A DNA stretch of 64,000 nucleotides, taken from contig JBIOKR010000001.1 in assembly GCA_044451945.1 (NCBI GenBank), forward strand, positions 7,672-71,671, read 5' to 3'. A program made the translations under genes and the position numbers. Below the pieces are notes generated by a model. That model was not told the DNA's origin. It saw only the letters and a list, made by a program, of their open reading frames with translations, and made no database searches. This stretch comes from Candidatus Lutacidiplasmatales archaeon (GTDB lineage Archaea > Thermoplasmatota > Thermoplasmata > Lutacidiplasmatales > UBA184). This document shows, piece by piece, positions 1 through 22,870 of the stretch (position 1 is its first letter; every line of letters starts with the position of its first letter).

Positions 1-2
1 TC

Positions 3-200: not shown

Positions 201-236
201 TCACGCCAACTCCCCCTGAAGAAATGGACCTCGGCT

Positions 237-1247: not shown

Positions 1248-1934
1248 GGGGGGTTTCCGACCACTCAGGAGAACTGAGGCTCTCGCGGCCGGACCGAAGG
1301 CTTTGACGGATTGGGGCGGGTTAGCCGACAGCCGAAGACGGGATGCCTGCCGGCCGCACGCCATTTCGCCCCCCGCCGCCACTGACGTGCTTTTCGAGGG
1401 AGAAAGTAGGCATTCTCTCGGCATTTGCGGGAGTCCGGCCGGAGTCCAGAGGCTATCCGGAGGGAGTGCAGTGGGTATTCTCGGATACCGACTGCTTTGC
1501 TACGGGACTCCGACTGCGATTGACCTCTCCGGAGGGGCACCTACGTTGGATTCCCTTGCGGCTCGGTCGGTCCCCTGTGCGGGCGGTCGAAATACGCTGG
1601 GAGAAAGGGGTCTCTCGGGTTTAGACCTCCTCGCAAGGTCCGAATGCCCACTTGCGCGACTGGTTCGCATGGTGGGCGTGGGTCGCGTTGGAGGCAATCA
1701 CCGCCGGTGGAGCCGTTTCAGCCGAATTTTCAGGCTCGGCCTTGATGGGCGGCAGGAGCGGGGCTAGAGTGGGGGCTGGAGTCGTTCAGGACGGGGGCTA
1801 GTGGACCTCGGGTCCTGCCCCTGACCAACCGCTGGACTCGGCAACTTCCCAAGCTTCCGCCGTTGTGAGCGGCGGTCGAAATGGGGAGGGGGGAACCGGC
1901 AGAGCTGGTGGATTCGACCAGCCGCTTGGAACTC

Positions 1935-2831: not shown

Positions 2832-2874
2832 TGGGCCCTCCCTGTGCGTCCTCTCCTCAAGAAGGACCCACCGT

Positions 2875-5484: not shown

Positions 5485-6371
5485 GCGCGGTTGGCCTCGA
5501 CCGCCACCGCGACCTGTTCTATCTCTGCGACCGCTCCTACGTTGGCGGCAAACGGCGGCATTGGGTCCTGGAAGCATACGGAAGGCACCGGCCAACTCTC
5601 TACCCGCCTCAGGTTCGCTCCGGGATCGCCGCCGACCTTCTCTCGCAATTGCCTTCCGAGAGTTTCAGCCTGGTGTATCTCGACCCGCCATACGGAACGA
5701 CCGACGGGGACTGGGACCGCGCCCCCGACTGGAAGGAGCTGGGGAGGGCGGTCGCTCGGCTGCTCAAGCCGACCGGGCAGGTGGTGCTCCACGGCTCAGG
5801 CTCTATGGGCTGCGAGGCCGTCGCCTCGTTCCTCGGGCCGCTCAGGTATCGCTTCGAGATAGTCTGGGTCAAGACCTCGGAGAACGGCTGCCTGATGCCT
5901 ACATCTTGGATTACCGACTTCGAGCCTCTCAGGGCTTTCGAGCAGATTCACGTCATGGCTAAGTCCGGCTCCAAGACGACCGAGCTCACCTTCAACCGAG
6001 GCGCAATCCACCGCCGCGTACCGGCCGGGCCTCGCTCAGCACAGAAGCGACCACCGAGTCATCAACTCAAAGGGGGCTGGAGCGGTAGGCTGCGCCCTCG
6101 GCGCGACGGCTATGGGTTTCCGGTCAACGTGATCTTCCAAGCCCCGGCCCGGACGGGGGACCTCTACGCCGCGAAACCGGAAGACCTGACCCGGCAACTG
6201 GTTTCGGCGCTCACCAAGCCCGGCGACTGGATACTCGACCCGTTCGCGGGGAGCGGCACCACCCTGCGGGTCGCGTACCGGCTCGGGCGACGCTCTCTCG
6301 GAATCGAAGCCTCCCCGGTGAACTTCGCTCTCCTCAAGCGACGGCTCTCCGAACTAGGGCAGGGGTCCTGA
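5481..6371 (+). CDS. DNA methyltransferase, beta-class N6-adenine/N4-cytosine type (orphan)
   Basis: Motif IV LVYLDPPYGT lies N-terminal to motif I LDPFAGSGTT, which is beta-class order. The ATG overlaps the prim-pol stop (ATGA). No nuclease gene is adjacent. Confidence 0.85.
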   Translation: MSAVGLDRHRDLFYLCDRSYVGGKRRHWVLEAYGRHRPTLYPPQVRSGIAADLLSQLPSESFSLVYLDPPYGTTDGDWDRAPDWKELGRAVARLLKPTGQVVLHGSGSMGCEAVASFLGPLRYRFEIVWVKTSENGCLMPTSWITDFEPLRAFEQIHVMAKSGSKTTELTFNRGAIHRRVPAGPRSAQKRPPSHQLKGGWSGRLRPRRDGYGFPVNVIFQAPARTGDLYAAKPEDLTRQLVSALTKPGDWILDPFAGSGTTLRVAYRLGRRSLGIEASPVNFALLKRRLSELGQGS

Positions 6372-6385
6372 TGCTGGTGGGTCCG

Positions 6386-6895
6386 TCACTGGAGGCGGAG
6401 TGGGGCGGAGTTCGCCCCGGTCTCCTCCGTCGGGAAGACCGCCTTGGCAGCCTCGAACTGCTTCGGGCTAAGGATGTACGACATTCCATTTCGGCGGCCA
6501 GCGAGGCCGAAGTCCCCCGGCGGGCGAGGGCGGAGGACCAGCGAGTCGCGGGGAATAGTGAACTCCGCCCCGCTCGATCTCCGCACGACAATCCCGGAGG
6601 GGATCACCCGAACCGCGGATGGTCGGAATACCATCCAGAAGTAGAGGTCAATGAGGGCCGAAGCGACCGCGGTGATGATGACGACAGCGAGAGCGACCTC
6701 GAACCCGTACTGGGGAATGAGGACCTTGAACCAAAGAAATGCGAGAACAATCACGAGGACGGGAGCGCTGCCGACGACCTGGTAGACAAAGAGCGGGTGC
6801 GTTCGCTCGGTCGGAATCCAGCCATCGGCCCCAATCCCCATTCGGAAGAGTCCGAATCGCCCGGGGTAGAAAAACCATGGCTCCTGCCAGCGCAA
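6386..6895 (-). CDS. Two-TM membrane protein with C-terminal soluble (PH-like?) domain
   Basis: Hydrophobic helices APVLVIVLAFLWFKVLI and VALAVVIITAVASALIDLYFWMVF, then about 80 aa of soluble sequence. The antisense frame here is acidic junk. A start at the internal ATG 6841 is possible. Confidence 0.6.
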   Translation of the reverse strand: MRWQEPWFFYPGRFGLFRMGIGADGWIPTERTHPLFVYQVVGSAPVLVIVLAFLWFKVLIPQYGFEVALAVVIITAVASALIDLYFWMVFRPSAVRVIPSGIVVRRSSGAEFTIPRDSLVLRPRPPGDFGLAGRRNGMSYILSPKQFEAAKAVFPTEETGANSAPLRLQ

Positions 6896-7549
6896 GTCCC
6901 TATAGCTTGTGCCATCTACGCGCGGGTCAGCACCTCAGACCAGACGACGGAGCCTCAGGTAGCAGCCCTCATGGCGGAGGCGGAGCGCCTCGGGCTCACC
7001 GTCCCCTCGGAACGCGTCTACATTGACGATGGCTTCTCCGGTTCCCTCGCCGAGCGGCCCGCATTCGACCGACTGAAAGCTGCGATCGAGGCGAGGCAGG
7101 TTATGGCCGTACTCGTCACCAAGCTTGACCGGCTCGGCCGCTCGGTCCGAGGCGTCCTCGAGTTCTACGACTCCGCGGAGGTTGCAGGCGTTCGCATCGT
7201 GGTGATCGACCAAGGGATGGACACCGCGACCCCGGGCGGGCGGCTCATGCGAACGATCTTGGCGGCGATGGCCGAATTCGAGCGCGACCTGATCGTAGAC
7301 CGAACGAAGAGCCGGATGGCCGCCTTCAAGGCGGGAATGCCCACCCGGTCCGGGCGGCCGGTAGGTCGGCCCCGTCGAGTGACTCGCGAGAAGGTCGAGG
7401 AAGCGCGCCGACTGCGGTCCACCAACCCGCCCCTCAAGTGGGCGACCGTCGCTCAGCGAGTGGGGCTGCCGAAAGAAACCCTGCGGAAGGCCGTCCGCGA
7501 GGCCCAGCGTTCCACGGCCGCGGGTGTTGCCGCGGGAACAATGCAGTAG
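6797..7549 (+). CDS. Serine recombinase (resolvase/invertase family)
   Basis: Catalytic-Ser motif CAIYARVSTSDQ, LVTKLDRLGRS, AEFERDLI, and a C-terminal HTH (WATVAQRVGLPKETLRKAV). The track start at 6371 adds a junk-like 140-aa extension over the opposite-strand gene. GTG 6797 is the nearest in-frame start, so the start is uncertain. Confidence 0.85.
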   Translation: MRSLGRNPAIGPNPHSEESESPGVEKPWLLPAQVPIACAIYARVSTSDQTTEPQVAALMAEAERLGLTVPSERVYIDDGFSGSLAERPAFDRLKAAIEARQVMAVLVTKLDRLGRSVRGVLEFYDSAEVAGVRIVVIDQGMDTATPGGRLMRTILAAMAEFERDLIVDRTKSRMAAFKAGMPTRSGRPVGRPRRVTREKVEEARRLRSTNPPLKWATVAQRVGLPKETLRKAVREAQRSTAAGVAAGTMQ

Positions 7550-7686
7550 AGGGATTGGACCATGCTGGAAAGCCCCTACCCCAGACCCCCAAGCGGGAAC
7601 AACCCTCAGTTGGGGGAAACTCCCGCCGACCGGGGAGGCGGGGCCGGGGAGCCTTCAGCGGCGGAAACCGCCCCCTTGTCCCCATG

Positions 7687-7923
7687 TCAGGAGTCGGCCC
7701 AGAACCCCTTCCGGCTTAGCGCGATAAGCGTCGCTCCCAACACCGGGGCCACTGGAGCGACCGCCCAAGCGGAAGGGTTCCACAGCAGAATCGCGAGGAC
7801 CACGTACGCGCCTAACGCGAGGAGTCCCGCGCCGGCAATCAAGGCGATCCGCCCACGCAAGCGGGAGTATCTCCGAAACTCCTCTGGGTCCATCGAGTCC
7901 AGACTCGGAACCAGTGCGCCCAT
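7687..7923 (-). CDS. Small two-TM membrane protein
   Basis: 78 aa with hydrophobic segments IALIAGAGLLALGAYVVLAILLW and VAPVAPVLGATLIAL. Codon position 3 is G/C-rich. Confidence 0.5.
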   Translation of the reverse strand: MGALVPSLDSMDPEEFRRYSRLRGRIALIAGAGLLALGAYVVLAILLWNPSAWAVAPVAPVLGATLIALSRKGFWADS

Positions 7924-8020
7924 TTACCTGCCTAGCGCCCTCCGACCCGCCCCGGCGCCCTCGGAATCGCCACGACAGCATTCATTAGTCGGGAGGTCGA
8001 CCGCCCTCTCGGAGGAACCC

Positions 8021-8983
8021 TTGCCCTCAACGGCAAGGGGTGGGAGAGAGAGGATCGAGTGGTATGCGGAGAAGCGGAAAGCAGGGATATCGAGGCGGCA
8101 CTACTTGGAGATTCGGCGGGTCTTGTCAGAGGCCGCCGATCTCCTCGAACAGGTAGGACTAGCGTGCCACCCGGGACGGTTCGGCGACGCCGAATTGGAC
8201 GCGCTACTGAACGGCGGTTGGCGCCCAGCCACCTCCGAGCAGGTGGGCTTGGCGCCGAGGACCAGGGCGTACAACGTCTGCCTTCTGAACGGCTTTCTCA
8301 AGGCCCACAGCAACCTGGCGGTGGAAAACCGGCACCTCCACTTCCCGAACGTGGGAGTTCGGCGTCGCGACTACCTGAAGCCGGACCAAGGTGCCCGGCT
8401 CCTGACGGTCGCCGAGACGCAGGGCATCCAGAGCCACGCGGCCGTGGCCTTGGAGATGCTGATGGGTCTTCGGAGATGCGAGATGCTCCGTGTGCGGACG
8501 ACAGAGTTGGACCTCGATGCGTATCCCGATGCGCTGCGCGTCCACGGCTCGCTGAAAGGCCAATCGGGCGAAAAGATACGGAAAGTCCCGTGGCACGACG
8601 AGGTTCGTCGGATCGTCCCGGAAGTTCTAGCCCACCGAAATCAGGAGGCGCGCAGGCTGAAGGGGCCCGATTCGGGGTTTGCCTTTGTCCATCGGACCTC
8701 CCAAGGGCTCAGGGTGTGGTCCAAGTCCTACGTGGACCGCATGTGGATGGGGCCGGCCTTCGACGCAGCGGGTATCAAGCGACCCGACGGGCTAAACCAC
8801 GTGTTGCGGCGCACGTTCGGCAGGACCCTGTGGGACAACGGGGTCCCCATCGAGAAGATCGCCTACCTGATGGGGCACGAGGATACTCGCGAGACGAAGA
8901 AATACCTCGGCCTGAACGAAGAGGACGCGCTGGAATCGATGCGCGTTCTGAACCGGGTCTTCCCCGCCCGGGTCGTCGCGTAG
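8021..8983 (+). CDS. Tyrosine recombinase/integrase
   Basis: Catalytic signature: GLRRCEMLRV (Arg), HVLRRTFG (His-x-x-Arg), LMGHED (His), KKYLG (Tyr). The track ORF starts at 7562 but overlaps the opposite-strand small gene. TTG 8021 is proposed as start (TTG 8105 possible). Confidence 0.85.
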   Translation: MPSTARGGRERIEWYAEKRKAGISRRHYLEIRRVLSEAADLLEQVGLACHPGRFGDAELDALLNGGWRPATSEQVGLAPRTRAYNVCLLNGFLKAHSNLAVENRHLHFPNVGVRRRDYLKPDQGARLLTVAETQGIQSHAAVALEMLMGLRRCEMLRVRTTELDLDAYPDALRVHGSLKGQSGEKIRKVPWHDEVRRIVPEVLAHRNQEARRLKGPDSGFAFVHRTSQGLRVWSKSYVDRMWMGPAFDAAGIKRPDGLNHVLRRTFGRTLWDNGVPIEKIAYLMGHEDTRETKKYLGLNEEDALESMRVLNRVFPARVVA

Positions 8984-9028
8984 TTGGAAGGTGGTTCAAT
9001 TGGTCCGAGACGGCAGAAACGCTGACGG

Positions 9029-9053
9029 AGCGGTTCGAATCCGCTCGGGGCTA
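9029..9053 (+). repeat. tRNA 3'-end fragment (T-arm + acceptor 3' strand + discriminator); att-like copy 1
   Basis: AGCGG-TTCGAAT-CCGCT forms a perfect T-arm, followed by CGGGGCT and A. No complementary AGCCCCG 5' acceptor strand and no D/anticodon arms lie upstream, so this is a fragment. The core CGAATCCGCTCGGGGCTA is at 9036-9053. Confidence 0.8.
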
Positions 9054-9054
9054 T

Positions 9055-9077
9055 GGTCCGAATCCGACCTGGGCTAT
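9055..9077 (+). repeat. Degenerate tandem copy of the tRNA 3'-end unit (att-like copy 2)
   Basis: GGTCCGAATCCGACCTGGGCTAT matches 19/23 positions of GGTTCGAATCCGCTCGGGGCTAT (9032-9054) and sits exactly 23 nt downstream. Confidence 0.6.
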
Positions 9078-9135
9078 TCCTTCCTGAGGCAGTTGCAAGG
9101 AGGGGTCGAGCGCCCCATTAAAGTAAAGGGAACGC

Positions 9136-9143
9136 TTTATTAA
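9136..9143 (+). promoter_or_regulatory. TATA-like box for the ArsR-family gene (leaderless geometry)
   Basis: TTTATTAA is centred about 26 nt upstream of ATG 9165 in an A/T-rich gap. Confidence 0.35.
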
Positions 9144-9164
9144 GCGGATACTTTACCAGTAGCC

Positions 9165-9473
9165 ATGGATGCCTTTCGCGCCATGGCGGAACCGCGCCGG
9201 CGCAAGGTTGTGGAGATTCTTGCCCATAGAGGGACCCTTAGCGCGTCGCAGATCTGCGATGAGTTCGATGTGACTCCTCAGGCGATTTCCCAACACCTAA
9301 GGGTACTTCGTGAGGCGAATGTGATCCATATGGAGAGGAGAGCCCAGCGAAGGCTCTACACCTTCAATCCTAAGTCGACGACCCAGATGCAAGTGTGGGC
9401 CGCGGAATTGGCGAAGTTGTGGAACCGCAGGCTCGACCGACTCGAGAAGATTCTGAAAGAGGAGGAAGCATGA
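9165..9473 (+). CDS. ArsR/SmtB-family HTH transcriptional regulator
   Basis: EPRRRKVVEILAHRGTLSASQICDEFDVTPQAISQHLRVLREANVIHMERRAQRRLY is a typical ArsR wHTH. Confidence 0.85.
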   Translation: MDAFRAMAEPRRRKVVEILAHRGTLSASQICDEFDVTPQAISQHLRVLREANVIHMERRAQRRLYTFNPKSTTQMQVWAAELAKLWNRRLDRLEKILKEEEA

Positions 9474-9961
9474 ATCAAGAGAGGGGGAAGGGGTCAATGG
9501 ACAGAGAACGACGCGACGCGCAAGTGTCGCGGGACTTCGACTTCCCGCGGGCGATTGTCTTCAACCTGCTCACCGACCCGAAGAAAGGGGCGGTCTCTTG
9601 GAGCCCCGAGGGGGCGGTCAATCTCGTCTTCGAGTTGGACCCGAGGCCTGGTGGGACGATACGAATTCACGACCGCGACAGCGACGGCAACGTTGCCAAG
9701 ACGATCGGAACCGTCATGGAGATTGTAGTTCCCGAACTCCTCGTCGTCAGGACCGCAACGACGCCTCCAACAGGCACGGCCCCGTGGGAGGCGCTGCAGA
9801 CGCTGAGGTTCGAAGAGATCAGCCCGAGGAAAACGCGAGTGACCATCCTGGTAAAGGTTCTCGCGACCGGCTCCTTCCCCGGAGGCATTGAGCCCCTCGA
9901 GCGAGCGTACCAGGGAGGATGGGGAGAGGTCCTCGAGCACTTGCAAAGTGCGCTGCGCTAG
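9470..9961 (+). CDS. SRPBCC/AHSA1-like domain protein
   Basis: VSRDFDFPRAIVFNLLTDPKK...IRIHDRDSDGN... resembles the Aha1/SRPBCC proteins usually paired with ArsR. ATG 9470 overlaps the ArsR stop (ATGA). Confidence 0.65.
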   Translation: MNQERGKGSMDRERRDAQVSRDFDFPRAIVFNLLTDPKKGAVSWSPEGAVNLVFELDPRPGGTIRIHDRDSDGNVAKTIGTVMEIVVPELLVVRTATTPPTGTAPWEALQTLRFEEISPRKTRVTILVKVLATGSFPGGIEPLERAYQGGWGEVLEHLQSALR

Positions 9962-9968
9962 GTCCGTC

Positions 9969-10206
9969 CTAGTCGTTCAGCCGAAGCCGCTCGTCCCTAC
10001 CAGGCGACCCCCAAACCAGGCGGTACAGCCAAGGCAGGTGCTCTATGGGAACCTTGCGAGGGCACCCGGGTGTGCCTGTCGATCGGAGGGCGTGAGGGAG
10101 GTTGTCTGAAGTCCGCTGAGAGGCCTTGAGTTGGGCCCGCAAGATCATCCCGACGATCCCGTCCCCTCCCGTCAGCAGTGTGTTCAGTTTCCTCGGAAAG
10201 AGCCGG
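9969..10206 (-). pseudogene. Possible relic of a tyrosine integrase C-terminus
   Basis: HALRSTGTPGCPRKVPIEHLPWLYRLVWGSPGRDERLRLND loosely parallels HVLRRTFGRTLWDNGVPIEKIAYLMGHEDTRETKKYLGLN of the intact integrase. The catalytic His/Tyr positions are not conserved. The region ends at an att-like copy. Confidence 0.25.
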
Positions 10207-10224
10207 CGAATCCGGTCGGGGCTA
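10200..10224 (+). repeat. att-like copy 3 of the tRNA 3'-end sequence
   Basis: GAGCCGGCGAATCCGGTCGGGGCTA. The core at 10207-10224 matches 17/18 positions of the 18-mer. Its flanks resemble those of the copy at 15905. Confidence 0.6.
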
Positions 10225-10392
10225 GATCCCACCTCCCGCCGTCCCGCTACGGCGCTCCGCCGACGGTTCGTGGAGAACCGAGCCGGCCGCAAGGAGTGGG
10301 TTCTCGGCCAATCCCACGGGCAGCTGGCGACTGCCTGACTAAATGACCGACTTGATATACCCTGGATCCCATGGCCAACATGGAGGACCGCT

Positions 10393-10608
10393 ATGGCCAC
10401 TAGTAGCATCGCCGTGAGCCAAGAGACCCGAAAGCTCCTCGAGACGCTCAAGACCGGGGGTGAGACCTACGACGATGTCATTCGGGCCCTGGTGGCGACC
10501 CACCCGACTCGGTTGACCTGGGCGGAGATTGCCAGGCGGATACGCGAAGGTGAGCCGGAGGGCCCGATAGAGGAACTCATCGCCAAGAGCCGGAAGCAAC
10601 CCTACTGA
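10393..10608 (+). CDS. Putative antitoxin (archaeal VapB-like, pfam02697-type)
   Basis: IAVSQETRKLLETLKTGGETYDDVIRALV matches the I-x-V-x2-ET-x3-L-x2-LK-x2-GESYDDVI pattern of that family. 71 aa. The stop overlaps the start of the next gene. Confidence 0.65.
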   Translation: MATSSIAVSQETRKLLETLKTGGETYDDVIRALVATHPTRLTWAEIARRIREGEPEGPIEELIAKSRKQPY

Positions 10609-10964
10609 TGGCCTTCCGGATTCGTCGAAAGCTCTCGAGCGATTCGGAATTCTTGGCGCTGCCTCCCGAAGTGCGGGAGGTCTTCATCGTGGTCTTCCGG
10701 GAGTTGGCCGTATCCAAGAGCCCCCGTCTGAGAGGTCAAGGGTACTTCATCGAGGAGCTGCGCCAGCGACAGAAGATCGCTCCGGAGGGGATCTTCTCCG
10801 TACACGTCACGGAGCTCCCCCGCGAGGAGTGGTTCTGGCGAGGGGCGTTCTTCCGGCGACGAAGCGATCTCGTCTTCTTTGGGTTCGGACCCCGGTTCCC
10901 GGATTTCTACGTCCGCATGGCCCGGGCCCGAGCCGCCATGTCCCGGGTCGACGATGAACGATAG
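10608..10964 (+). CDS. Putative toxin, RelE/ParE-like
   Basis: 118 aa, 1-nt overlap with the antitoxin (TGATG). The C-terminal WRGAFFRRRSDLVFFGFGPRFPDFY resembles the RelE/ParE YRxxY...ixilxigxR..xY core. The assignment is tentative. Confidence 0.45.
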   Translation: MAFRIRRKLSSDSEFLALPPEVREVFIVVFRELAVSKSPRLRGQGYFIEELRQRQKIAPEGIFSVHVTELPREEWFWRGAFFRRRSDLVFFGFGPRFPDFYVRMARARAAMSRVDDER

Positions 10965-10979
10965 GGGTGCCGATTCTAA

Positions 10980-11597
10980 TTACCCGGGCCAATCGAGTGG
11001 GCAGCCGACCGAACCGAAGTCCGGCGAGACGAGGGACGTCAAAAACCTGTCCCCGGTAAACCGGATGTTCTGGAGGTCGGTGTCGAAGACCAGCTTGACG
11101 CTGGCATATGGGGTAGGGGGAATCGCCCAGTTACCCCCGAGCGTCCACGTCGATAGGGTCCAATTCCGAACTCCGACTATTGCGCCGGTTGAGCTGAGTG
11201 CGGTCACCCGCGCTGAGGGGCCCAACGCGACGGGAAGGCCGGATTGGATATTGGAGTTGTTCGTCGGTAGGCCCAAGACTTCAAAACGAAAGTCCGAGAG
11301 GATCCTCCCGGCGACGCCGGGGGTGCTGAGGCCGTATGAGTAGCAGTTCTCACCGGCCAAGTACTGACAGCCAGTTTGTCCAGAAGCTACGTAACCGAGC
11401 GGAGCGAGTGACCTTGCAGGGGGGCCCGGCCCGAGTTGTTCGTTAGGCACTAGTTGTCCCACCCACCACAGGTTGACGCAAACGGCCGCGGCAAGCGCGA
11501 GGGCCGCCACGGAGAACACGATGATAGACCGACGACGGGACTGTTTTCGGCCGGAACGGCTACCGTGCGAGGACGACTCGTCCGTCATAGCCCCCAA
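10980..11597 (-). CDS. Hypothetical N-terminally anchored extracellular protein
   Basis: Basic N-terminus followed by the TM helix SIIVFSVAALALAAAVCVNLWW, then a Ser/Thr/Gly-rich ectodomain. Confidence 0.55.
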   Translation of the reverse strand: MGAMTDESSSHGSRSGRKQSRRRSIIVFSVAALALAAAVCVNLWWVGQLVPNEQLGPGPPARSLAPLGYVASGQTGCQYLAGENCYSYGLSTPGVAGRILSDFRFEVLGLPTNNSNIQSGLPVALGPSARVTALSSTGAIVGVRNWTLSTWTLGGNWAIPPTPYASVKLVFDTDLQNIRFTGDRFLTSLVSPDFGSVGCPLDWPG

Positions 11598-11863
11598 CGC
11601 CTTGACTTAGAGGCCACCATCCATAACCTCATTGTGCGCAGAGCTTGATGCGGCACCGCGGTTCTGCTAAAGGCGGCGTGCGTAAAGGGTGGGTTTGCTG
11701 ATCCCCCCCGGGGGTTCGGATTGGGTCTCCGATGCGGTTGGGGCGGACCTGATTCCCCCGCTGGTTCAAGAAGCAGGACCGATCCTGCGCCCTTCCAGCG
11801 AGACTCCACGAGTTCACCGGTCGGAGCGTGTACGCACCCGGCAAACTCTAAGGTAAACCGAGC

Positions 11864-12355
11864 ATGTCAACCGCCGTGGGAGATTACCCGGACGATACCC
11901 CATGGCTGAGGAGTTCCATCATCTCCTTTTCCACCATTCTCTGGACCATCGGAATCTCGCTCGTGATCACCGTCCCGATTGCGGCAGCGTGGGCAGCAGG
12001 GTGGGTCGAGCTGGCATCGAAGGGAGTCCCGGATTTTCTGATACTCGGCGTCATCTATGTGGTGGCGTGGTTGGTCACTCTATTGGCAATGACCGTCCTC
12101 CTGAACCGCGACAGGAAGGTTCTGGCAGTCATGGCGGTTCATCGGGGTCTTAAGTTCGAACTGGCCTCCTCCGCACCCGAGCTCGTACCGTGGGAGGACC
12201 TCCTCAGAGCGTCCTCGGAGCCAAAGGATCGGTGGGTGCGCCTGACGTACCGATGCAGAGACGGAACCGGGACGGAGGGTTTCTTCCTCTTGAGCCACTA
12301 CCAGTTCGAGGGGGTGGCAAGGCATCCCCTGTTTCCCGCTCGCATCCACCATTAG
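11864..12355 (+). CDS. Two-TM membrane protein, distant paralogue of 6386-6895
   Basis: Two hydrophobic helices followed by about 80 aa soluble. The C-terminal GFFLLSHYQFEGVARHPLFP parallels MSYILSPKQFEAAKAVFP in the element-borne protein. Confidence 0.55.
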   Translation: MSTAVGDYPDDTPWLRSSIISFSTILWTIGISLVITVPIAAAWAAGWVELASKGVPDFLILGVIYVVAWLVTLLAMTVLLNRDRKVLAVMAVHRGLKFELASSAPELVPWEDLLRASSEPKDRWVRLTYRCRDGTGTEGFFLLSHYQFEGVARHPLFPARIHH

Positions 12356-12471
12356 CGTGCGTTCGGTGAGGGGGAGCCCGTGTCCCAGGACCTGCTACCA
12401 ATGAAGCTCATGCCCCACCCAAGAGACTCTACGATCTGTGGCGCTCGTGACCGGGCGATAAGGAGAGGTTT

Positions 12472-13026
12472 TTGACCTCACCCGAGAGTGCATCTTCCCA
12501 TCCGAACCGAGGAGAGCCGGTGTCTCAGTCGGTCCCAGGGTCCTCGTCGCCTCGGAAGATTGGCCGGGGGCTGGGATACGCCGGTCTGGCGATCTTGGGC
12601 TCCGCCGTCATCTTCGTGGCGGCTCTCTGGTCGATTTACGCGGGGGCATTGGGACCACGGGCCGTGGGCGGGCCACCGCCAATCGTTGTCGTGGCGACGG
12701 CGGGAACGACATGGAAGGTGAGGGCGGGTGGACACGAAGATGCCGGACCGATCGATATCAGCTCGGATACCTCTTGGCGAATGTACGGGACTTTCGCCTC
12801 CGCTAACGGGATTGCGGCGTACGTCCTGACCGCGAGCGACTTTGCACGATGGAATGGCTCACAATCTCCCCCAGCCGCCTACTCATGGAGCTCGGGGGGG
12901 AGTGTTGCTTCTGGGACTTTCGAAAATCTAATCCTCCCATCGGATACGTACTACATCGTCTGGGACAACACGAACCCGACCCTCCCGTCCTCGGTTGAAA
13001 TCACGGCGATGATCTATGCTTCATAG
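12472..13026 (+). CDS. Hypothetical N-terminally anchored extracellular protein
   Basis: TTG start, TM helix LGYAGLAILGSAVIFVAALWSIYAG, then a beta-rich ectodomain. Confidence 0.5.
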   Translation: MTSPESASSHPNRGEPVSQSVPGSSSPRKIGRGLGYAGLAILGSAVIFVAALWSIYAGALGPRAVGGPPPIVVVATAGTTWKVRAGGHEDAGPIDISSDTSWRMYGTFASANGIAAYVLTASDFARWNGSQSPPAAYSWSSGGSVASGTFENLILPSDTYYIVWDNTNPTLPSSVEITAMIYAS

Positions 13027-13387
13027 CCCGAGCTCGCACCGCCTGCGCAAACGGTCTGGTTGAGTGAAGGCTCGGGAGAGGTTCCAGCAGGGGATAGAAA
13101 TCGAGTCCCTTTCCAAAGGGCTCCCCCTTGCTTGTCCGGCGAGGAAGCGAATCGGATTGAGGCAGCTCGAGTGCTCGGGCTTTGGGTTGCTAGGGGGCGC
13201 GCCAAGACTTACGTCGACCCTGACCCGTTCAAGGAGAGGGCGACGGAGATCGGGAAGACGCTGGGAGGAAGTCGGAGGACGGGTTCAGTCGACGGAGCGA
13301 GGTGCGCGCCTGGAGCGGGCCACGTGTTCGACGTGGCGCGCCTTCTCCGGAGGAACTTTATCCTGAAGGGTATGAGAGCAACTCGGA

Positions 13388-13909
13388 ATGAAGGCATCCT
13401 CCAAACACCCTACGGAGACCCCGCGCAAGGTGCACTCGCCGAGTGTGACGTACGTTGAGGACAGAGGGGCCGTCTACAACGCGCCGATCGAAGTCGTTTG
13501 GGATTTCATGGAGAAGGACGAGACGTTCCATCCCAAGGCCCACAATGCTGCGGTGCGGAACTTCGAAGGGAGGGCCCTTTCCGAGGTTACGACCCTCCTT
13601 AGCTATGAGAGGCGAAAGGGCGGCCGATGGGAGAAGATGGTCTGTCGCATGACTGCAATTCGTCCTGCGGCGAGGATCCAGGAGGACCTCGATGGCCCGT
13701 TCGCAGGGTCGAAGACGGTGTTCCTCTACACGCCACAGGGCGAACGAACGGTCGTCGATGTATTCGGCTACATGCAGTCTCCCGAGCTCACCCCCGCGGA
13801 GATCAAACGGGACAGGAAGGAGACCTGGGCGAATGCCTACTCGGAGGACTTACCCTATTTCCGCCGCTATTCCAAGCAACACCCCTCCGTCCTGGTGAAG
13901 CGCAGGTAA
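13388..13909 (+). CDS. Hypothetical protein, possibly SRPBCC-fold
   Basis: 173 aa. AVYNAPIEVVWDFMEKDETFHP is SRPBCC-like. The assignment is weak. Confidence 0.5.
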   Translation: MKASSKHPTETPRKVHSPSVTYVEDRGAVYNAPIEVVWDFMEKDETFHPKAHNAAVRNFEGRALSEVTTLLSYERRKGGRWEKMVCRMTAIRPAARIQEDLDGPFAGSKTVFLYTPQGERTVVDVFGYMQSPELTPAEIKRDRKETWANAYSEDLPYFRRYSKQHPSVLVKRR

Positions 13910-14026
13910 ACATCTCGCTGTGGCCGACAGCCTGATGTTCCTGCACTTTCGATCCACCCCCGGGTCTTGATAGGCGTGGGTTTCTGCTGGTGAGGGTTCG
14001 CGACCCGTTTCGGTCCCCCCGAGTTC

Positions 14027-14974
14027 TCAGAAGATCACGGGCGGCCGAAGCTTCTCATGGCCCGTGGTTCCGCCTGCCGAGAACGTAGCAGCCGACCGGC
14101 CCAGGTGGTACATGAACGATTCCGCCGCTACGGATACGTTGAGTTCCACTACCACCATGTAACGGTGGCTCCCGTTGAAGCTGCCGTTGAGGAACCAGGA
14201 TGGAGAAAACGTGCCGACGAGCCGGGAGGAGGCACCGAAGCTGTAGTTCTCCGAAACCCAAATCGAGTAGTTTGAAGACCAGTAGGACCGGTTCGAATAT
14301 GCCCCGAAGTACCCGTAGCTGATCGTCTGCACCCCCGAAGCGAGGTGGACCCCCGACCAAGAATTGGCGGGGTGGATCGCCCCGCCCGTGGTGAGGTCCA
14401 GGAGCTCCGCATACCCGGCAACGTTGACGACCGCCTCCACGTCGCACCACTGGTAGGCGAAGGTGTAGGTGAAATTCGTGTGCGCGTAGATGAAGTGGTA
14501 TCGCGTCACGTTGAATGGGCATCCGAACACCGGCTTGCCGAACGAGGCGTTGGTCGACCCTGTCAGGGCAATGGACCAGCCCACCTCGACTCCGTGATCG
14601 GAGGCGTTCAAGCTCACCGGTACTCCGATGGAGAGTTGCTCCTCGGAGAGGGCGTACGAATCCGCGGCAGCCCCACCCCTCCCGGTAGGACATGCAAGGG
14701 CCCGACCCGAGGCCGACCAGCCTCCAACGTGGGTGGATCGATTGAACGCCACCGGTGCGGAGGTTTGATGCGAGCAGTTCCAGACCTCGATCGTGTGGCT
14801 CCGAGAAACGGACAACGGGGCTGGTAACCCGGAGCCGGAGACGGGCACGGACGAGGCTACGACGACGGCTCCCACGAGGACAAGCACCCCAATGGTCGAC
14901 CCCGGCCCGAGGAAGATCACACCCTCCAGGACGCCTTGGGAACGGTGCCCGAGGTTGCGTTGTTTCGTCCTCAT
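14027..14974 (-). CDS. Secreted/anchored sequon-rich protein (paralogue of 21770-22579)
   Basis: N-terminal TM helix VIFLGPGSTIGVLVLVGAVVVA and 12 N-x-S/T sequons in 315 aa. It shares the motifs LLD.T......PANSW and a C-terminal ...S.AG.....KL....I.F with the 269-aa protein at 21770-22579. Confidence 0.65.
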   Translation of the reverse strand: MRTKQRNLGHRSQGVLEGVIFLGPGSTIGVLVLVGAVVVASSVPVSGSGLPAPLSVSRSHTIEVWNCSHQTSAPVAFNRSTHVGGWSASGRALACPTGRGGAAADSYALSEEQLSIGVPVSLNASDHGVEVGWSIALTGSTNASFGKPVFGCPFNVTRYHFIYAHTNFTYTFAYQWCDVEAVVNVAGYAELLDLTTGGAIHPANSWSGVHLASGVQTISYGYFGAYSNRSYWSSNYSIWVSENYSFGASSRLVGTFSPSWFLNGSFNGSHRYMVVVELNVSVAAESFMYHLGRSAATFSAGGTTGHEKLRPPVIF

Positions 14975-15133
14975 CCCGGTCCGAGAACCGAGACCTCTCG
15001 CAAGCTAAACGCTTTCCGGACCGGACTCGCATCGATACGCTCGGAGCGAGTTCACCGTGAGTTCCCCCGAAAGCGAGCTTAACCATCCCTTTCCGATGGG
15101 GAGGGCCCCTCACGATGAGCACCTTCTCGCCGC

Positions 15134-15568
15134 TCACTCCATCGGGACGTGCCGGTCGGAGGATTGGAATCGCTTTGGAGGTTCCCAGAGTTCCAGTCGG
15201 TTTCCCTCCGGGTCCTCGGCCCAGCCAAACTTCCCGTACGCGGACGGTTCCGCATCGGGAGACACGCGTACCCCTTTCGCCCGAAGCTGCGTCAACAGCT
15301 GGTCGAGATTCGCTACGCGATAGTTCACCTCGGCAGACGGCCGGCCCCGACCCCACTCACGATCGCCGGCTCCGAGCGCCGCCCAGAGCGTGGTCCCCGC
15401 GCGCTTCCTACCTCTTGGACTAATCCACTTGTAGACGGCCATCTGATCCTTGATTTCCAACCCGAGATGGTCCCTGTACCACGCTGCGAGCTCCTCCGGA
15501 TTGCGAGCTCGTAGGAATACTCCGCCAATCCCTGTAACCCGTCCGACCTTCCGCTGCTTGCTCGCCAC
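15134..15568 (-). CDS. VOC-family (glyoxalase/bleomycin-resistance fold) protein
   Basis: VTGIGGVFLRARNPEELAAWYRDHLGLE ... YGKFGWAEDPEGNRLELWEP is a typical VOC beta-alpha-beta-beta-beta module. Confidence 0.8.
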   Translation of the reverse strand: MASKQRKVGRVTGIGGVFLRARNPEELAAWYRDHLGLEIKDQMAVYKWISPRGRKRAGTTLWAALGAGDREWGRGRPSAEVNYRVANLDQLLTQLRAKGVRVSPDAEPSAYGKFGWAEDPEGNRLELWEPPKRFQSSDRHVPME

Positions 15569-15904
15569 TACCCATCACCCGCCGGGGCTCTTCTACACGG
15601 CCATGGCAATAAGTCGTACGGTGGGCGGTCAACGATCACTTCTCTCGAGTCGCGTGCGCGGGTGCGCAAGGCTCGCCTTTCGCCATCTCGGGGGCCGGCG
15701 GAAGGCGAGGGACCTTTTCCGGAGGGGAGGGTTGACTACGGCCCCCCTGGACGGTAAACCGCGCCGAGAACCCTGCGCGCGCCTCATTCGCCGGCGACTC
15801 TTCGAGATCAGGCCCTGAAGACCCCGCGGGATGGACCCTGTGGCGGATGGCGCGGCGTACCGGCTCCTCCCCGACGACGTATCCCTTTGTCATGTAAAAG
15901 CAGG

Positions 15905-15922
15905 CGAATCCGCTCGGGGCTA
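15905..15922 (+). repeat. att-like copy 4: exact repeat of the tRNA 3'-end core
   Basis: CGAATCCGCTCGGGGCTA is identical to 9036-9053. There is no tRNA body upstream. Confidence 0.8.
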
Positions 15923-16312
15923 GACTTCACCAAGAGCCGGCTCGCCAGGGCGTTCCGCCGGCGGTCTGGGAGGAATCGTACGCCCCTAAGGGGGTCCTCG
16001 GTCAAGCGCCCGCCCCGAGGATTCGCGTAGCGAGTTTCTGGGGGTTTGAGGCCCAGGCGTCACAGTATCCGGGGATCGTCAACGCCTCCGGCTCCTTGAC
16101 GGGGTGAATCCAACTCTACTAACGATTGATATGCGACCCTCGGCTTCGGTAGAAAGAGGCCACGGCGGGTGGCGCTACAACCAGCCCATGGGGCGGGTTT
16201 CCGCCCCGGGGCCCTGATTCAACGGCCTTGGCACTGGAAGGCGGACGAGACCGAGCACTTCTGATTGCGGTCGTCACCCCCCAGATCCCAGAAATCGGTG
16301 GTGTTACGAATC

Positions 16313-17281
16313 ATGGTGAACTCCGAGAAGTCCTTCGCGATATCTACCGACGGACTTTCGAAATCCTACGCCTCCGTCACGGCCTTGAAAGGCCTCAACC
16401 TCAGGGTTCCTGAGAAGTCGATCTTCGGACTACTAGGGCCGAACGGAGCAGGGAAGACCACGACCATCAAGCTGCTTCTTGGGTTGCTTAGGCCGACGGC
16501 GGGCGGAGGCACCTTGCTCGGTCAGGACATCCTGAGGAACAGTGTGGACGTCCGGAGGCGTATCGGCTACTTGGCTCAGAATCCGAGCTACTACGGCTAC
16601 ATGACAGCTCGTGAAGTTCTGAGATTCAAATTTCGCTTCTACTGTTCGGGTGAAAGATCGGCGCTGGAGGAGCGTGTCGAAGAGACGCTCGACATGGTCG
16701 GTCTCAGGGACAAGGCAGATCGACCCATCAGCGGCTTCTCGGGTGGTGAACGACAGCGTTTGGGCCTTGCTCAGGCGCAAGTCCACCACCCGGAACTTCT
16801 CATTCTCGATGAGCCGGCCGCGAACCTGGACCCAATGGGGCGGCACGATGTGCTCAAGCTCATGGAAAGGCTCCGAGAGCATTCTACCGTCGTGTACTCG
16901 ACCCACATCCTCAACGACGTGCAGCACATCAGCGATACGGTGGCCATCCTCAAGGGTGGGGAGCTCCTGGCTCAGGCGCCGATCGCGGAGCTCCTCCGGG
17001 GCTCGGGTGGCGTCGTATACGACCTCACACTGAAGGGCCCGTACCAGGAGGTCTGCGACCGGATCCAGAAGTTGCCTTGGGTCACCAAAGTTCACGTCGT
17101 TCACTCCGATTCTCGGACGACATTAGAAGTCGGCGTGACCGACGAGGAGAAGGCGGAAGAGGAGCTTCCAAGGCTGGCGCTCCTCGGCGACAAATCGGTG
17201 CTTTCTGAATTCGGGAAGAAGCGCTACGCGCTCGAGGACATCTTCATGGACATCGTGGAGGGGGGGAAAAGTGGAGCCTGA
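16313..17281 (+). CDS. ABC transporter ATP-binding protein
   Basis: Walker A GPNGAGKTT, signature FSGGERQRL, Walker B LLILDEPAANLD. Start taken at ATG 16313 (MVNSEKSF). Confidence 0.92.
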   Translation: MVNSEKSFAISTDGLSKSYASVTALKGLNLRVPEKSIFGLLGPNGAGKTTTIKLLLGLLRPTAGGGTLLGQDILRNSVDVRRRIGYLAQNPSYYGYMTAREVLRFKFRFYCSGERSALEERVEETLDMVGLRDKADRPISGFSGGERQRLGLAQAQVHHPELLILDEPAANLDPMGRHDVLKLMERLREHSTVVYSTHILNDVQHISDTVAILKGGELLAQAPIAELLRGSGGVVYDLTLKGPYQEVCDRIQKLPWVTKVHVVHSDSRTTLEVGVTDEEKAEEELPRLALLGDKSVLSEFGKKRYALEDIFMDIVEGGKSGA

Positions 17282-18071
17282 GGTCCTGCTGCCTGCGACA
17301 GCCCCCTCCGGCATCTTCACCGGGCTTGGGAACAAGACACGCGAGGAAAACGCCCGGTGGTGGAACACCCGCGCCTGGCTGATCCAGGCCATGCTCTGGC
17401 TGGCCCTCATTGACGGGATCGCAACGATCGCGCTGATCCAGACGCGACACACCGAGCCGGGGTTCACCCTGAATGGCTTCATGAGCGTCTACATGGGCCT
17501 GATGGGTTGGTTCGTGGCCTTTGGAGTCATCATCCTGACCCAGAGCGACGTCATCGGGGAGAAGCAGTCGGGCACCGCCGAATGGGTCCTCTCCTCGCCC
17601 CTTTCCAGGGAGAGCTTCATCCTCTCCAAGCTGATCGTGAATCTCGTATGGCTCGTCGCCATCCTTGTCGTGCTCCAGGGAGTCGTGTTCAACCTGGTCC
17701 TCGGGGCTTTGGGGACTGGGACAATCGCGTGGTCGAGTCTCCTGGCAGGCCTGGGCCTTCAGGCATTGTACCTTGCCTTCTGGTTGACCTTGGTCCTGAT
17801 GCTCGGGACCTTTTTCCGGAACCGAAACGCAGTCATCGGTGTCCCGCTCATCCTGGTCTTCCTCCAAACCCTCATCCCGAGCATTGTGGGAGGGGCCGGT
17901 TCCTGGGTTTCGTTGCTCCTGCCTCAGAGGATACCGGACTATGCCATCGACCTAGTGCTCGGCAAGCCACTGCCATCACTTGCGCCCATACTCATCGTGA
18001 CGGGGGCGATCTTGGCGTTCGTCCTTCTCGCCATTCTCCGGTTCAACCGGGAGGAATTCACCGGGACCTAG
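17271..18071 (+). CDS. ABC-2 type transporter permease
   Basis: Multi-pass hydrophobic protein directly coupled to the ATPase; the GTG start overlaps the ATPase stop by 11 nt. Confidence 0.8.
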   Translation: MEPEVLLPATAPSGIFTGLGNKTREENARWWNTRAWLIQAMLWLALIDGIATIALIQTRHTEPGFTLNGFMSVYMGLMGWFVAFGVIILTQSDVIGEKQSGTAEWVLSSPLSRESFILSKLIVNLVWLVAILVVLQGVVFNLVLGALGTGTIAWSSLLAGLGLQALYLAFWLTLVLMLGTFFRNRNAVIGVPLILVFLQTLIPSIVGGAGSWVSLLLPQRIPDYAIDLVLGKPLPSLAPILIVTGAILAFVLLAILRFNREEFTGT

Positions 18072-18223
18072 TCAACGAGAAAGAGGGCCTGCCCTTCACG
18101 ACCAATGAAGGAAAGAGCGAGCGACGAGCTACGCGCCGGACCGCGATGACAGGCCGGTGAGTACTTCCTTAGGGCCCGTCGCCACTCTGATACGCGCACT
18201 CGCCTTGGAATCCGTCGGTCCGG

Positions 18224-18964
18224 ATGAAGTTCAACTGGGCGCGGTCGCTTCGTCTCACCCTCGCGACGACCGGAGCTGTGCTCCTTCTTCTTACCCTCTC
18301 GCTCGGATGGTGGACCATCACCACCGATTCGAACCCGTTGACTCTTCCCGGCGGTCACGACTACCATTTCCAAGCGACGGCGAGCTACCTTCCCGGTTCG
18401 TCCTTCCGATTCTGGTGTTCGGTGAACGACAGCTCTGCGCCGGGCTGGGGCACAATATGCCCCGGGACGCAGCCGATAGGGGAGCTCAATCCCTACAACG
18501 ATCCCATTTCGGGGTCGACTCATGTCGGGGCGCTGTACAATAACTTGGAGGTCGCGGTCTGGCTCATGGGCCTCATCGGGCTCGCGGGCGCCATCATGCT
18601 CGGGCTCCGGGGACTGATTTCGCCCGGTCGTCTCCGAACGGCGCTCGGTATCGGCTGGGTCGTACTCGTGGTCGCGGCGATACTCGCCTTCGCAGTCCCC
18701 CTCGGCGTACTGATGGCCCAGACGACCGCGTACTCGCAAGACCACCCCGGCGATTCCAGGTCGGTTGGCACATTCTGGGGCAGCTGCCAGTCCACGGGTG
18801 ATCCGACCGAATGCGGGTACAATACCACGGAGACTTGGGGGGCGGGTCCCGCTTGGTACCTCTCCTTCCTAGCTGGAGGCTTGCTGCTGACGGCCGCGTG
18901 CACAGAGCGTGCGTCCATCCGACGAGGTAATCCGGCGAGCTCCCCGAAGTCTCACGGCGATTAA
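18224..18964 (+). CDS. Hypothetical multi-pass membrane protein with Cys-containing ectodomain
   Basis: Signal/TM segment TGAVLLLLTLSLGWW and three further hydrophobic helices. No motif recognised. Confidence 0.6.
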   Translation: MKFNWARSLRLTLATTGAVLLLLTLSLGWWTITTDSNPLTLPGGHDYHFQATASYLPGSSFRFWCSVNDSSAPGWGTICPGTQPIGELNPYNDPISGSTHVGALYNNLEVAVWLMGLIGLAGAIMLGLRGLISPGRLRTALGIGWVVLVVAAILAFAVPLGVLMAQTTAYSQDHPGDSRSVGTFWGSCQSTGDPTECGYNTTETWGAGPAWYLSFLAGGLLLTAACTERASIRRGNPASSPKSHGD

Positions 18965-19208
18965 GGAGGGGTTCAGCAGAACCCCTCCCCCCATGTTGGC
19001 ACCACCGGCCGCCCATTGCCGACCCGCACGGTGGGGGGAGGAGGTAAGGGCCCTCTCCCCGCGGGCCGCCATCCCTCCACTTCGTGGCCATGGATCCCCG
19101 CGTTACGGTCCGCGGCTTGCTCGCATTCGATAGGGACCCTCGAGAGTTTGAGGCTCCCGCGCGGCGCACCGCAGCGGTAAGTAGGCTGCGAATCTGCCCG
19201 TCTCCTCG

Positions 19209-21650: not shown

Positions 21651-21769
21651 GCGAGCGCGGGACCCATAGTCTCGCCGGGCGGCAGCGCCGGCGTGCCCGC
21701 CCGTTTGGTGTGAGGCGCCGCTTCCGGTCCGGTCGAGTCTCGCCCTCCTCCAGGGGGTGGGGCCTTTGC

Positions 21770-22579
21770 TCACGTGAAGGTGATGGAGGTGAGCTTCGTG
21801 CTCTTCCCGGAACCGGCAAGGCTCAGGAGCGCGCTCGCGGTACTGGGCCCCTTCGAGCTCGCCTGGGCGTACGCCGAGATGTCGATGGCGGTCGTGATCG
21901 AGTATACGTGGCCCGACACGAGCGTTTGGTTGAGATACATCGAGACGGTCGCGGAGGAGATGTTGCTCACCGTGCCGTTGCTGATCGCGCTGAAGAAGCC
22001 CCAACTGTTCGCGGGCGAGAGGTACGTCAGGTTCGTTTCGTCCAGCAGCCAGAGCACCGCCACGACGAATGAGGAGGCGTAACCGCCCCCCGTGAACTTG
22101 GGTCCCTTGCTCACGGACACGGTCGAGCTCCACGCCACGGACCAGTGCGCCACGACATGGTGGACTCCGCTGACGTGGGTGAACGTCCGGGTGAAATACC
22201 CTGAGCCGCCCCCGATCTTCACCCAGTTGTACCCGAGCGGCGAACCGCAGGACTTGGCGGCGGCCTTGACGGCGACCTTGGCCACGCCGGAGGAGGTGGT
22301 GAACTTCGGGTGGGTAGTAATGGTCCCCTTCACGCCGCAGCCGAGCGTGGAGAGGGACGTGCTGACCAGCCCCTTCCCGTTGTACGGCGGCGCATACGTG
22401 GAGAGCGGATGACTCGGCGCCGCCTGGGCGATCGGCACGAGGAGCAGTAGGGCCGCCACGCCCGCCCCACCGAGGGCGGGAGCGATCTTCGACCAGATGG
22501 GTCGCTGAGGTCGCGCCCGTGGGGCTGTCGAGGTCGTGGTCTCGCTCACTATTCGCTTCATCGCATCCCGTGGATTCAT
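21770..22579 (-). CDS. Secreted sequon-rich protein (paralogue of 14027-14974)
   Basis: Signal/TM segment APALGGAGVAALLLLVPIAQA. Shares motifs with the island-borne 315-aa protein. Confidence 0.65.
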   Translation of the reverse strand: MNPRDAMKRIVSETTTSTAPRARPQRPIWSKIAPALGGAGVAALLLLVPIAQAAPSHPLSTYAPPYNGKGLVSTSLSTLGCGVKGTITTHPKFTTSSGVAKVAVKAAAKSCGSPLGYNWVKIGGGSGYFTRTFTHVSGVHHVVAHWSVAWSSTVSVSKGPKFTGGGYASSFVVAVLWLLDETNLTYLSPANSWGFFSAISNGTVSNISSATVSMYLNQTLVSGHVYSITTAIDISAYAQASSKGPSTASALLSLAGSGKSTKLTSITFT

Positions 22580-22870
22580 CGACGTCTAACCGGCCTAAGC
22601 CCGCGGCCTGACGGCGCGACAGGACCTGGTCCGTCCGCCCACTTGCCTCCCCTACTTATCGTGCGGGGCTGACGTATCGTTGCCGAGCCGCGCGCGAGAG
22701 GAAGAGCCCACAACGCCAAGGCCTTCGGTCGAGATGCCGGAGCGATCCTCCGCGGCCCGACCGCAACCCGTTCCGCAGGCGGTGCGAGGAGCCGCAGAGC
22801 ATCGCGACACGCCCCTACGGGCCAATTCGTTCTCGACCCTTCAAATACGGCCTCACCGCCAATTCACCGT

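Follow-up and report, generated by a model that had tools for sequence, protein, structure and literature searches.

Probable serial integration at a tRNA-Gln(UUG) gene of an uncultured Thermoplasmata archaeon: an integrase-bearing element followed by integrase-free cassettes

In streptococci, cis-mobilisable elements (CIMEs) are recombinase-less units flanked by attachment (att) sites that, through site-specific accretion, stand in tandem with an integrase-encoding element that could excise or mobilise them; these units are bacterial, conjugation-linked and usually number one or two. Tandem re-use of tRNA att sites by tyrosine-recombinase elements is known in both archaea and bacteria (PMC8371274, PMC6563490), and the tycheposon islands of Prochlorococcus are anchored on tRNA genes and carry scattered partial tRNAs, with newer insertions pushing older ones inward (10.1101/2020.12.28.424599). 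Here we analyse a 64-kb stretch of contig JBIOKR010000001.1 (the window; 67% GC), in which a preliminary description had proposed that two copies of a tRNA 3' end bracket a single 6.9-kb accessory island. We find four copies, and consider it probable that they record serial integrations at a tRNA-Gln(UUG) hotspot, comprising one integrase-bearing element (type A) and integrase-free cassettes (type B).

The 18-mer CGAATCCGCTCGGGGCTA is present exactly at 9036-9053 (copy 1) and 15905-15922 (copy 3), both on the + strand as previously described, and the window has no other exact 18-mer direct repeat. Two further copies of this core had been overlooked; one (copy 2, at 10207-10224) has a single mismatch, and the other is a degenerate copy with three mismatches at 9059-9076, 5 nt downstream of copy 1. 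With their flanking sequence, the four copies are as follows.

9029-9053, + strand: copy 1, 25 nt identical to the 3' end of tRNA-Gln(UUG), putative attR core of the type-A element
9055-9076, + strand: degenerate copy, GGTCCGAATCCGACCTGGGCTA, part of the flank found behind intact tRNA-Gln in relatives
10171-10224, + strand: copy 2, type-B junction with P arm GTGTTC, ~20 nt, GCCGG; core at 10207-10224 with one mismatch
15870-15922, + strand: copy 3, type-B junction with P arm GTATCCC, ~20 nt, GCAGG; exact core at 15905-15922

All four copies lie within 6.9 kb, whereas the remaining 57 kb, searched on both strands, holds one match with four mismatches, which is at chance level. No copy is seen in 1-9028, even with four mismatches allowed, nor in 15930-31000 with up to five. 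The exact pair by itself is weak evidence in such GC-rich sequence, because 58 of 300 first-order Markov simulations at the window composition (~0.19) hold some exact 18-mer direct repeat; the earlier estimate of 0.03 for a chance repeat was too low. That such a pair is expected in ~19% of random 64-kb windows of this composition is what speaks for a chance or dispersed genome-wide repeat unrelated to integration. We give this explanation next to no credence, since the sequence is the 3' end of a tRNA-Gln, its copies are clustered, and its flanks are conserved across genomes. Non-randomness rests on the tRNA identity, the extra copies, the similarity of the surroundings of copies 2 and 3 (73% over 83 nt) and the matches to a site-family profile described below.

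Copy 1 extends to a 25-nt match at 9029-9053, AGCGGTTCGAATCCGCTCGGGGCTA, which comprises the perfect T-arm, the 7-nt 3' acceptor strand and the discriminator of a Thermoplasmata tRNA-Gln(UUG). A scan for the 22-mer GGTTCGAATCCGCTCGGGGCTA, using one genome per species, returned at least 119 loci; among the loci listed, it forms the 3' end of a tRNA-Gln(TTG or CTG) in dozens of Thermoplasmata and DPANN contigs. The Thermoplasmata tRNA-Gln gene sequence is AGCCCCGTGGTGTAGTGGCCAAGCATGCTGGCCTTTGGAGCCGGCGACAGCGGTTCGAATCCGCTCGGGGCTA. In some Actinomycetota the 22-mer is instead the 3' end of a tRNA-Glu(CTC). No tRNA gene was found in the window, either by ARAGORN or with Rfam (E<=10 on 1-22000; gathering thresholds over all 64 kb), in keeping with the earlier view that copy 1 is a fragment and not a gene. 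The window is archaeal, encoding TFIIB at 33887-34882, and its 31.1-34.6 kb region is collinear with the Thermoplasmata metagenome-assembled genome (MAG) L121; L-numbers here are labels of retrieved comparison loci. The best explanation is that the host is an uncultured high-GC Thermoplasmata archaeon and that the window lies just downstream of its tRNA-Gln(UUG) gene.

Repeated or isolated tRNA 3' ends are seen in other loci as well. A Euryarchaeota MAG has three tRNA-Gln 3'-end copies ~100 nt apart (L020, 2944-3158) and a Micrarchaeia MAG has two with a spacing of 90 nt (L003, 2539-2629). In two actinomycetotal loci, L019 and L035, the 22-mer occurs without a detectable tRNA, and L028, from the same MAG as L035, has the intact gene; this suggests that analogous tRNA-fragment scars exist in bacteria.

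The sequence on the left of copy 1 has the organisation of an integrated element, with the following features.

1-9053, + strand: type-A integrated element, at least 9 kb, cut by the left window edge, with its right end at copy 1
2791-5484, + strand: primase-polymerase, open reading frame (ORF) of 897 aa (Prim-Pol PF09250, E 9e-27; PriCT_1 PF08708, E 2e-7)
5481-6371, + strand: N6/N4 DNA methyltransferase (PF01555, E 6e-24; phrog_67, E 1e-36)
6371-7549, + strand: serine recombinase (PF00239, E 4e-38; resolvase/invertase domain at residues 181-320)
7562-8983, + strand: tyrosine integrase ORF (PF00589, E 2e-15, profile positions 2-170 of 172)
8984-9028, + strand: type-A P arm, between the integrase stop and the tRNA-identical core

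Comparisons with other loci place the right end of this element precisely. The integrase of L165 is 90% identical, and nucleotide identity between this locus and window 8008-9053 is 84.8%; the alignment breaks off precisely at the final base of copy 1, past which L165 has an unrelated one-gene cassette. In L142, an intact tRNA-Gln is joined to a flank that matches window 9054-9082, with 94% identity over 54 nt (window 9029-9082). Since the L165 homology stops at 9053 and the L142 tRNA joins the same flank, copy 1 appears to be the attR of an element that spans at least 1-9053. The attL, with the intact tRNA-Gln, is predicted to lie left of the window on the + strand, where the preliminary description had also expected an intact tRNA. 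In L123 a 7-kb unit whose last two genes are a resolvase and an integrase lies between an intact tRNA-Gln (4624-4696) and a fragment (11651-11668). In L123 and L046 the two element arms flank the core as inverted repeats, GGGCAAA..CTCT.TCGGA and TCCGA.AG.G.TTTTGCCC, the partner arms being TCCGAGAGAGATTTTGCCC and GGGCAAAATCTCTATCGGA; by the same token, the source tRNA-Gln should be trailed by an inverted partner of 8984-9028, about CTCCGTCAGCGTTTCTGCCGT.

A degenerate tRNA-Gln duplicate lies directly behind the intact tRNA-Gln in L142, L021, L024 and L029, and in more divergent form in L075. The degenerate copy at 9055-9076 may be the scar of an ancient event or else belong to the attachment site. 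A diverged tRNA-Gln 3' copy resembling GGTTCGAATCCGACCGGGGCTA also occurs in L084, L136 and L153, and follows some junction sites too.

The integrase stop codon is at 8983, 52 nt before the 18-mer of copy 1 as reported earlier, and the core lies within ~15-55 nt after the integrase stop in every homologous locus (L121, two cases in L122, L123, L140 and L165-L169). The arm between them, 8984-9028, aligns with the arms of L121, L122 and L123 (...ACGGCA(A/G)AA.C.CT..CGGAG...). Integrase homologues share 69-90% identity over residues 143-473. The translation shows the R...K...HVLR...H...Y residues, and the catalytic domain is complete and uninterrupted. The conserved part corresponds to ~7990-8983; the first ~140 residues are of low complexity (Pro/Ala/Ser/Gly-rich), are not covered by homologues and may not be translated, the ORF start probably being over-extended by the high GC. 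Assignment of the protein as XerA was rejected (47 bits, the cut-off being 220), as was an SSV-type ("suicidal") element, in view of a core 52 nt past the stop, an intact gene and an HxxR rather than a KxxR box.

The serine recombinase lies directly 5' of the tyrosine integrase, an arrangement kept in the window, L122 (8543-10879) and L123 (9321-11599); in L140 the two genes (~4159-4779 and 8293-10215) are ~3.5 kb apart. Its homologues in L122 and L123, immediately upstream of the integrase, have 193-227 aa, and the ORF start in the window is probably over-extended through high GC as well, by ~180 N-terminal residues (6371-6900). The primase-polymerase ORF also matches PHROG DNA primase/polymerase families and has a 40%-identical relative on IMG/VR contig L120, a distant relative. 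The GC content of 1-9053 is 60-67%, compared with 66-71% past 19 kb. Searches of IMG/VR found no close relative of the integrase, no copy of the 20-mer and no match to the type-B pattern, and lend no support to a viral nature; phage and plasmid databases gave only bacterial recombinases of 23-31% identity. The homologous element in L123 carries a TIR-domain gene (CAP12-PCTIR_TIR, 7485-8234), possibly defence cargo.

Copies 2 and 3 differ from copy 1 in what precedes them. Upstream, both carry an arm with no relation to the integrase-adjacent one, a GTATCC-like stretch and then ~20 nt whose last bases are GCAGG; the type-B site as a whole is ~47 nt long, with GTATCC, ~20 nt and then the core. 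In nine loci from an unbiased genome scan (L014, L021, L024, L029, L032, L068, L097, L121 and L122), tRNA-Gln cores lying downstream of tRNA-Gln have this arm in front of them. A type-B profile built from these nine loci and searched with nhmmer matches the window at 10171-10233 (E 2.4e-10) and 15870-15931 (E 2.8e-15), and finds no further type-B site in the window, including the part right of 15922. The copy 3 site is 72-89% identical to sites in L160, L130, L135, L161, L132 and L136. Scanning metagenomes for the arm together with the core added 41 loci, from peat-type samples, whose arrays contain five sites at most; array sizes are 5-8 sites in L122, L133, L127 and L129. Conservation across 70 distinct type-B sites covers GTATCC, 26-27 nt before the core, and the positions ...ctG.Aa.aGCAGG. 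On visual comparison, the arm resembles a degenerate tRNA-Gln 3' half (CGGCGACAGCGGTTCGAATCC vs CGGCAACAGCAGG-CGAATCC). An origin of the GTATCC arm as the start of a conserved minus-strand ORF was ruled out, as frame and start codon vary among sites.

These sites end integrase-free units in more than 50 Thermoplasmata loci. The 47 type-B-ended units compared are 441-5680 bp long, with medians of 1687 bp and two ORFs, the ORF calls inside them being crude (based on GC at third codon positions). Cargo includes PIN/RHH pairs, methyltransferases, glyoxalases, transporters, PEP synthase and HxlR. Related units recur in different contexts. Thus 5173-8055 of L133 and 5965-8847 of L151 match at 90.5% with homology ending at the core, and this common unit is third in one array and first behind the tRNA in the other; the same core-bounded sharing is seen between L007 and L153, and between L129 and each of L143, L149 and L154. 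Because cassettes recur at different array positions with homology ending at the core, we conclude from these alignments that the type-B sites represent real recombination junctions. The earlier proposal that the repeats are tRNA 3'-end copies produced by site-specific integration is supported.

In the window, the type-B junctions divide the sequence right of copy 1 as follows.

9054-10224, + strand: unit 1, 1.17 kb, integrase-free, with an ArsR-type regulator and an SRPBCC/AHSA1 protein (Pfam)
9165-9473: ArsR-type regulator of unit 1 (Pfam)
ending at 9961: SRPBCC/AHSA1 protein of unit 1 (Pfam)
10225-15922, + strand: unit 2, 5.7 kb, integrase-free, the largest of the 47 type-B-ended units
10225-10315, + strand: left-hand (P') arm of unit 2, which contains the palindrome CTCCGCCGACGGTT, 30 nt past the core
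10393-10608: VapB-like ORF of unit 2 (weak DUF7557/VapB matches, below Pfam cut-offs)
10608-10964: 118-aa ORF of unit 2, neighbour of the VapB-like ORF, without family match
15134-15568, minus strand: VOC/glyoxalase gene of unit 2 (E 1.3e-7)
15923-18111, + strand: putative start of unit 3, P' arm at 15923-16013, right end unmarked by a recognisable site
16265-17281: ABC ATPase of unit 3 (Pfam)
17271-18071: ABC-2 permease of unit 3 (Pfam)

Units 1 and 2 are each flanked on both sides by att sites with a common core, and on this evidence the "6.9-kb island" would be at least two cassettes. No remnant of an integrase, resolvase or primase was detected in 9054-31000 by tblastn and family hidden Markov models. 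The DNA between the exact repeats is accessory, as had been thought, being carried by no relative. Its reported cargo stands with respect to ArsR, SRPBCC/AHSA1 and VOC/glyoxalase; of the proposed toxin-antitoxin pair, the antitoxin is backed by sub-cut-off matches and the "toxin", at 10608-10964, by no family match. Unit 2 also holds several membrane or unknown ORFs without family match.

The two copies form the only exact pair and the integrase adjoins one of them, which would suit a single 6.9-kb island integrated by that integrase between att sites at 9036-9053 and 15905-15922. Such an island is nevertheless very unlikely. Further sites lie inside or beside the interval, at 10207 and 9059; the integrase is outside it, to the left of copy 1; homology with the L165 element extends no further than 9053; in L123 the integrase lies inside the tRNA-fragment interval, at its right end; and a cassette-type left arm begins at 15923. 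The exact copies are members 1 and 4 of the four-copy array, with the site at 10207 splitting the interval between them, and the integrase attributed to the 6.9-kb block belongs, as L165 and L123 indicate, to the right end of a separate element with its boundary at 9053.

A left arm of ~90 nt is common to 10225-10315, 15923-16013, L122 (15235 onward), L130 and L160, with equal spacing. Because the arm at 15923 is that of unit 2 and of these three loci, this position probably starts another unit and not, as had been assumed, the chromosomal flank. A palindrome, TTCCGCCGGCGGT, stands at a fixed 30 nt past the core in the window (10255-10268 and 15953-15966) and in L122, L130 and L160, and may serve to bind a protein. 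Nothing clearly marks where the variable region ends on the right: no further site is detectable, GC stays near 60% as far as ~18.5 kb, and synteny with relatives resumes only at ~30-31 kb. Overall, the first 19 kb have a GC content of 60-65%, against 65-73% in the remainder. The 19-28 kb region, non-syntenic with relatives, encodes very large secreted proteins of PKD/PNGase type (19209-21650 and 25466-27910). A 44-nt motif, CTAGTCAACGAGAAAG.GG.CC.GCCCTTCACGA..AATGAAGG, occurs once in the window (18068-18111) and once in L069 (903-946), with 89% identity. It follows the stop of the ABC-2 permease gene in the window and that of a VOC gene in L069; the window homologue of this VOC gene is 2.9 kb from the motif, on the opposite strand.

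Small cassettes with conserved end sites near a tyrosine recombinase, and cargo rich in toxin-antitoxin, glyoxalase and methyltransferase genes, recall a classical integron with an IntI-type integrase and folded single-stranded attC sites. We regard this as extremely unlikely. The integrase scores 20.8 bits against the integron-integrase model TIGR02249, for which the cut-off is 265, and the tRNA-derived sites have no excess hairpin stability, with folding z-scores of +0.41, -0.33 and -0.93 for the three sites; these DNA folding scores also led us to reject the junctions as attC-like hairpins. Genes in the type-B-ended units lie on both strands (68 vs 41), and a tRNA gene, instead of an attI beside intI, anchors the array.

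The scheme that best accommodates these observations is one in which the tRNA-Gln(UUG) gene serves as a hotspot for tyrosine-recombinase integration. Each insertion would recombine an 18-25-nt core, equal to the tRNA 3' end, with the identical sequence on incoming DNA, rebuilding the tRNA and leaving an extra 3'-end copy downstream, and repeated events would build up an array. In the window, the autonomous element at 1-9053 would then stand upstream of older integrase-free cassettes, the degenerate copy at 9055-9076 would belong to the old flank behind the tRNA-Gln, and copies 2 and 3 would be junctions of a lineage-wide family of ~47-nt sites, ending units 1 and 2. The units would have entered as circles through site-specific recombination.

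Several points weigh against this scheme. The window includes neither the intact tRNA-Gln nor the left end of the element, and there is no strain-level empty site among the retrieved loci. No circular or excised form was found; terminal overlaps are missing from all retrieved contigs, and IMG/VR has no copy of the 20-mer. The arrays of L129, L133 and L127 lack an integrase within 12-14 kb, and there are 0-2 mismatches in the secondary cores, which is what neutral scars would show. Because the search pattern for the metagenome loci required GTATCC, the conservation of their arm is partly built in; the unbiased genome scan gave 15 sites, and these display an identical type-B arm.

Some of these points would equally suit arrays composed only of dead scars, in which the units are decayed remnants of once-autonomous integrase-carrying elements, no longer mobile, and the conserved 47-nt arm merely marks one extinct or unsampled element family. 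Units without a recombinase fit such decay, as do the many arrays with no integrase in the sequenced 12-14 kb. Secondary cores with one or two mismatches are about as frequent as those with none, some units differ by indels unbounded by sites (L132 vs L161), and a 49-aa integrase remnant adjoining the type-A arm in L046 indicates decay in place. We nonetheless think dead scars rather unlikely. Whereas the decayed type-A unit of L046 keeps a remnant, none of the 47 type-B-ended units has an integrase gene or pseudogene, and across 60 loci integrase hits are confined to the neighbourhood of type-A or type-C arms. The units go down to 441-800 bp with single genes, and their arm is unlike the integrase-adjacent one, which argues that they are not deletion derivatives of type-A elements. 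Type-B units in L121 and L122 separate the integrase-bearing unit from the tRNA, and would be the later arrivals if insertion is tRNA-proximal. Finally, a distal core can be exact while a proximal one is mutated, as for copies 3 and 2 of the window.

Within the preferred scheme of serial integration at tRNA-Gln(UUG), the recombinase of the cassettes might be supplied in trans by an integrase-bearing element such as 1-9053. The distinct conserved site, the lack of any integrase remnant, the very small size of some units and the site-bounded mosaicism all favour this; against it speak the failure to find circles or empty sites, the arrays with no integrase close by, and the scar-like mismatches of the cores. 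We hold it possible, if still somewhat doubtful. A bolder and less likely suggestion, which we offer only tentatively, is that the tRNA-Gln(UUG) 3' flank acts as an integron-like gene-capture platform in peat/acid-soil Thermoplasmata. Small integrase-free circular cassettes, each with a ~47-nt site derived from tRNA-Gln, would be inserted, reshuffled and excised in trans by the tyrosine integrase of the resident primase-polymerase element, which may act with its conserved serine-recombinase partner.

Serial integration at a tRNA site is an ordinary process, here packaged as unusually small integrase-free cassettes, and this cassette family is the feature most worth following up. The analysis corrects the boundaries of the mobile elements, the integrase-bearing one ending at 9053 and the "island" resolving into separate cassettes, and identifies an archaeal tRNA-Gln as the integration target. 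The tRNA-Gln locus is a hypervariable store of accessory genes, including regulators, toxin-antitoxin systems, VOC enzymes and transporters, in many uncultured soil Thermoplasmata. If the cassettes are indeed mobilised in trans, they would constitute a simple, sequence-defined gene-capture system in Archaea; were the flank a capture platform, it would be a tRNA-anchored analogue of integrons that uses double-strand sites. The att sites, with an 18-25-nt core plus arms, are defined well enough for direct testing.

Among the closest parallels are the archaeal tRNA-targeting elements, which are alike in their tRNA 3'-end target, identical direct repeats and intact integrase beside the att site; the thaumarchaeal cryptic integrated elements also have a primase-polymerase replication module (PMC6563490). 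The present locus differs in its peat/acid-soil Thermoplasmata host and tRNA-Gln target, in the HxxR (HVLR) box of its integrase, compared with YxxR in the pNOB8 type and KxxR in the SSV type (PMC8371274), in the pairing with a serine recombinase, and in arrays of up to eight sites with mostly very small integrase-free units. Tycheposons share a small integration module, a primase/helicase replication module, variable cargo and remnants alongside (10.1101/2020.12.28.424599). This resemblance is one of architecture only; their host is bacterial and fragmented integrases are reported among their remnants (10.1101/2020.12.28.424599), in contrast to the type-B units, where there are none and where a distinct conserved 47-nt site family marks the integrase-free units. 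Compared with CIMEs, no transfer genes are seen here, and the arrays consist of many cassettes of 0.4-5.7 kb. Integrons, including those of archaea (PMC9668308), are alike in having cassettes of one to three genes with an end site and in carrying toxin-antitoxin, glyoxalase/VOC and methyltransferase cargo, whereas the system described here combines a non-IntI integrase, sites without attC-like folding and genes on both strands with an anchor in a tRNA gene.

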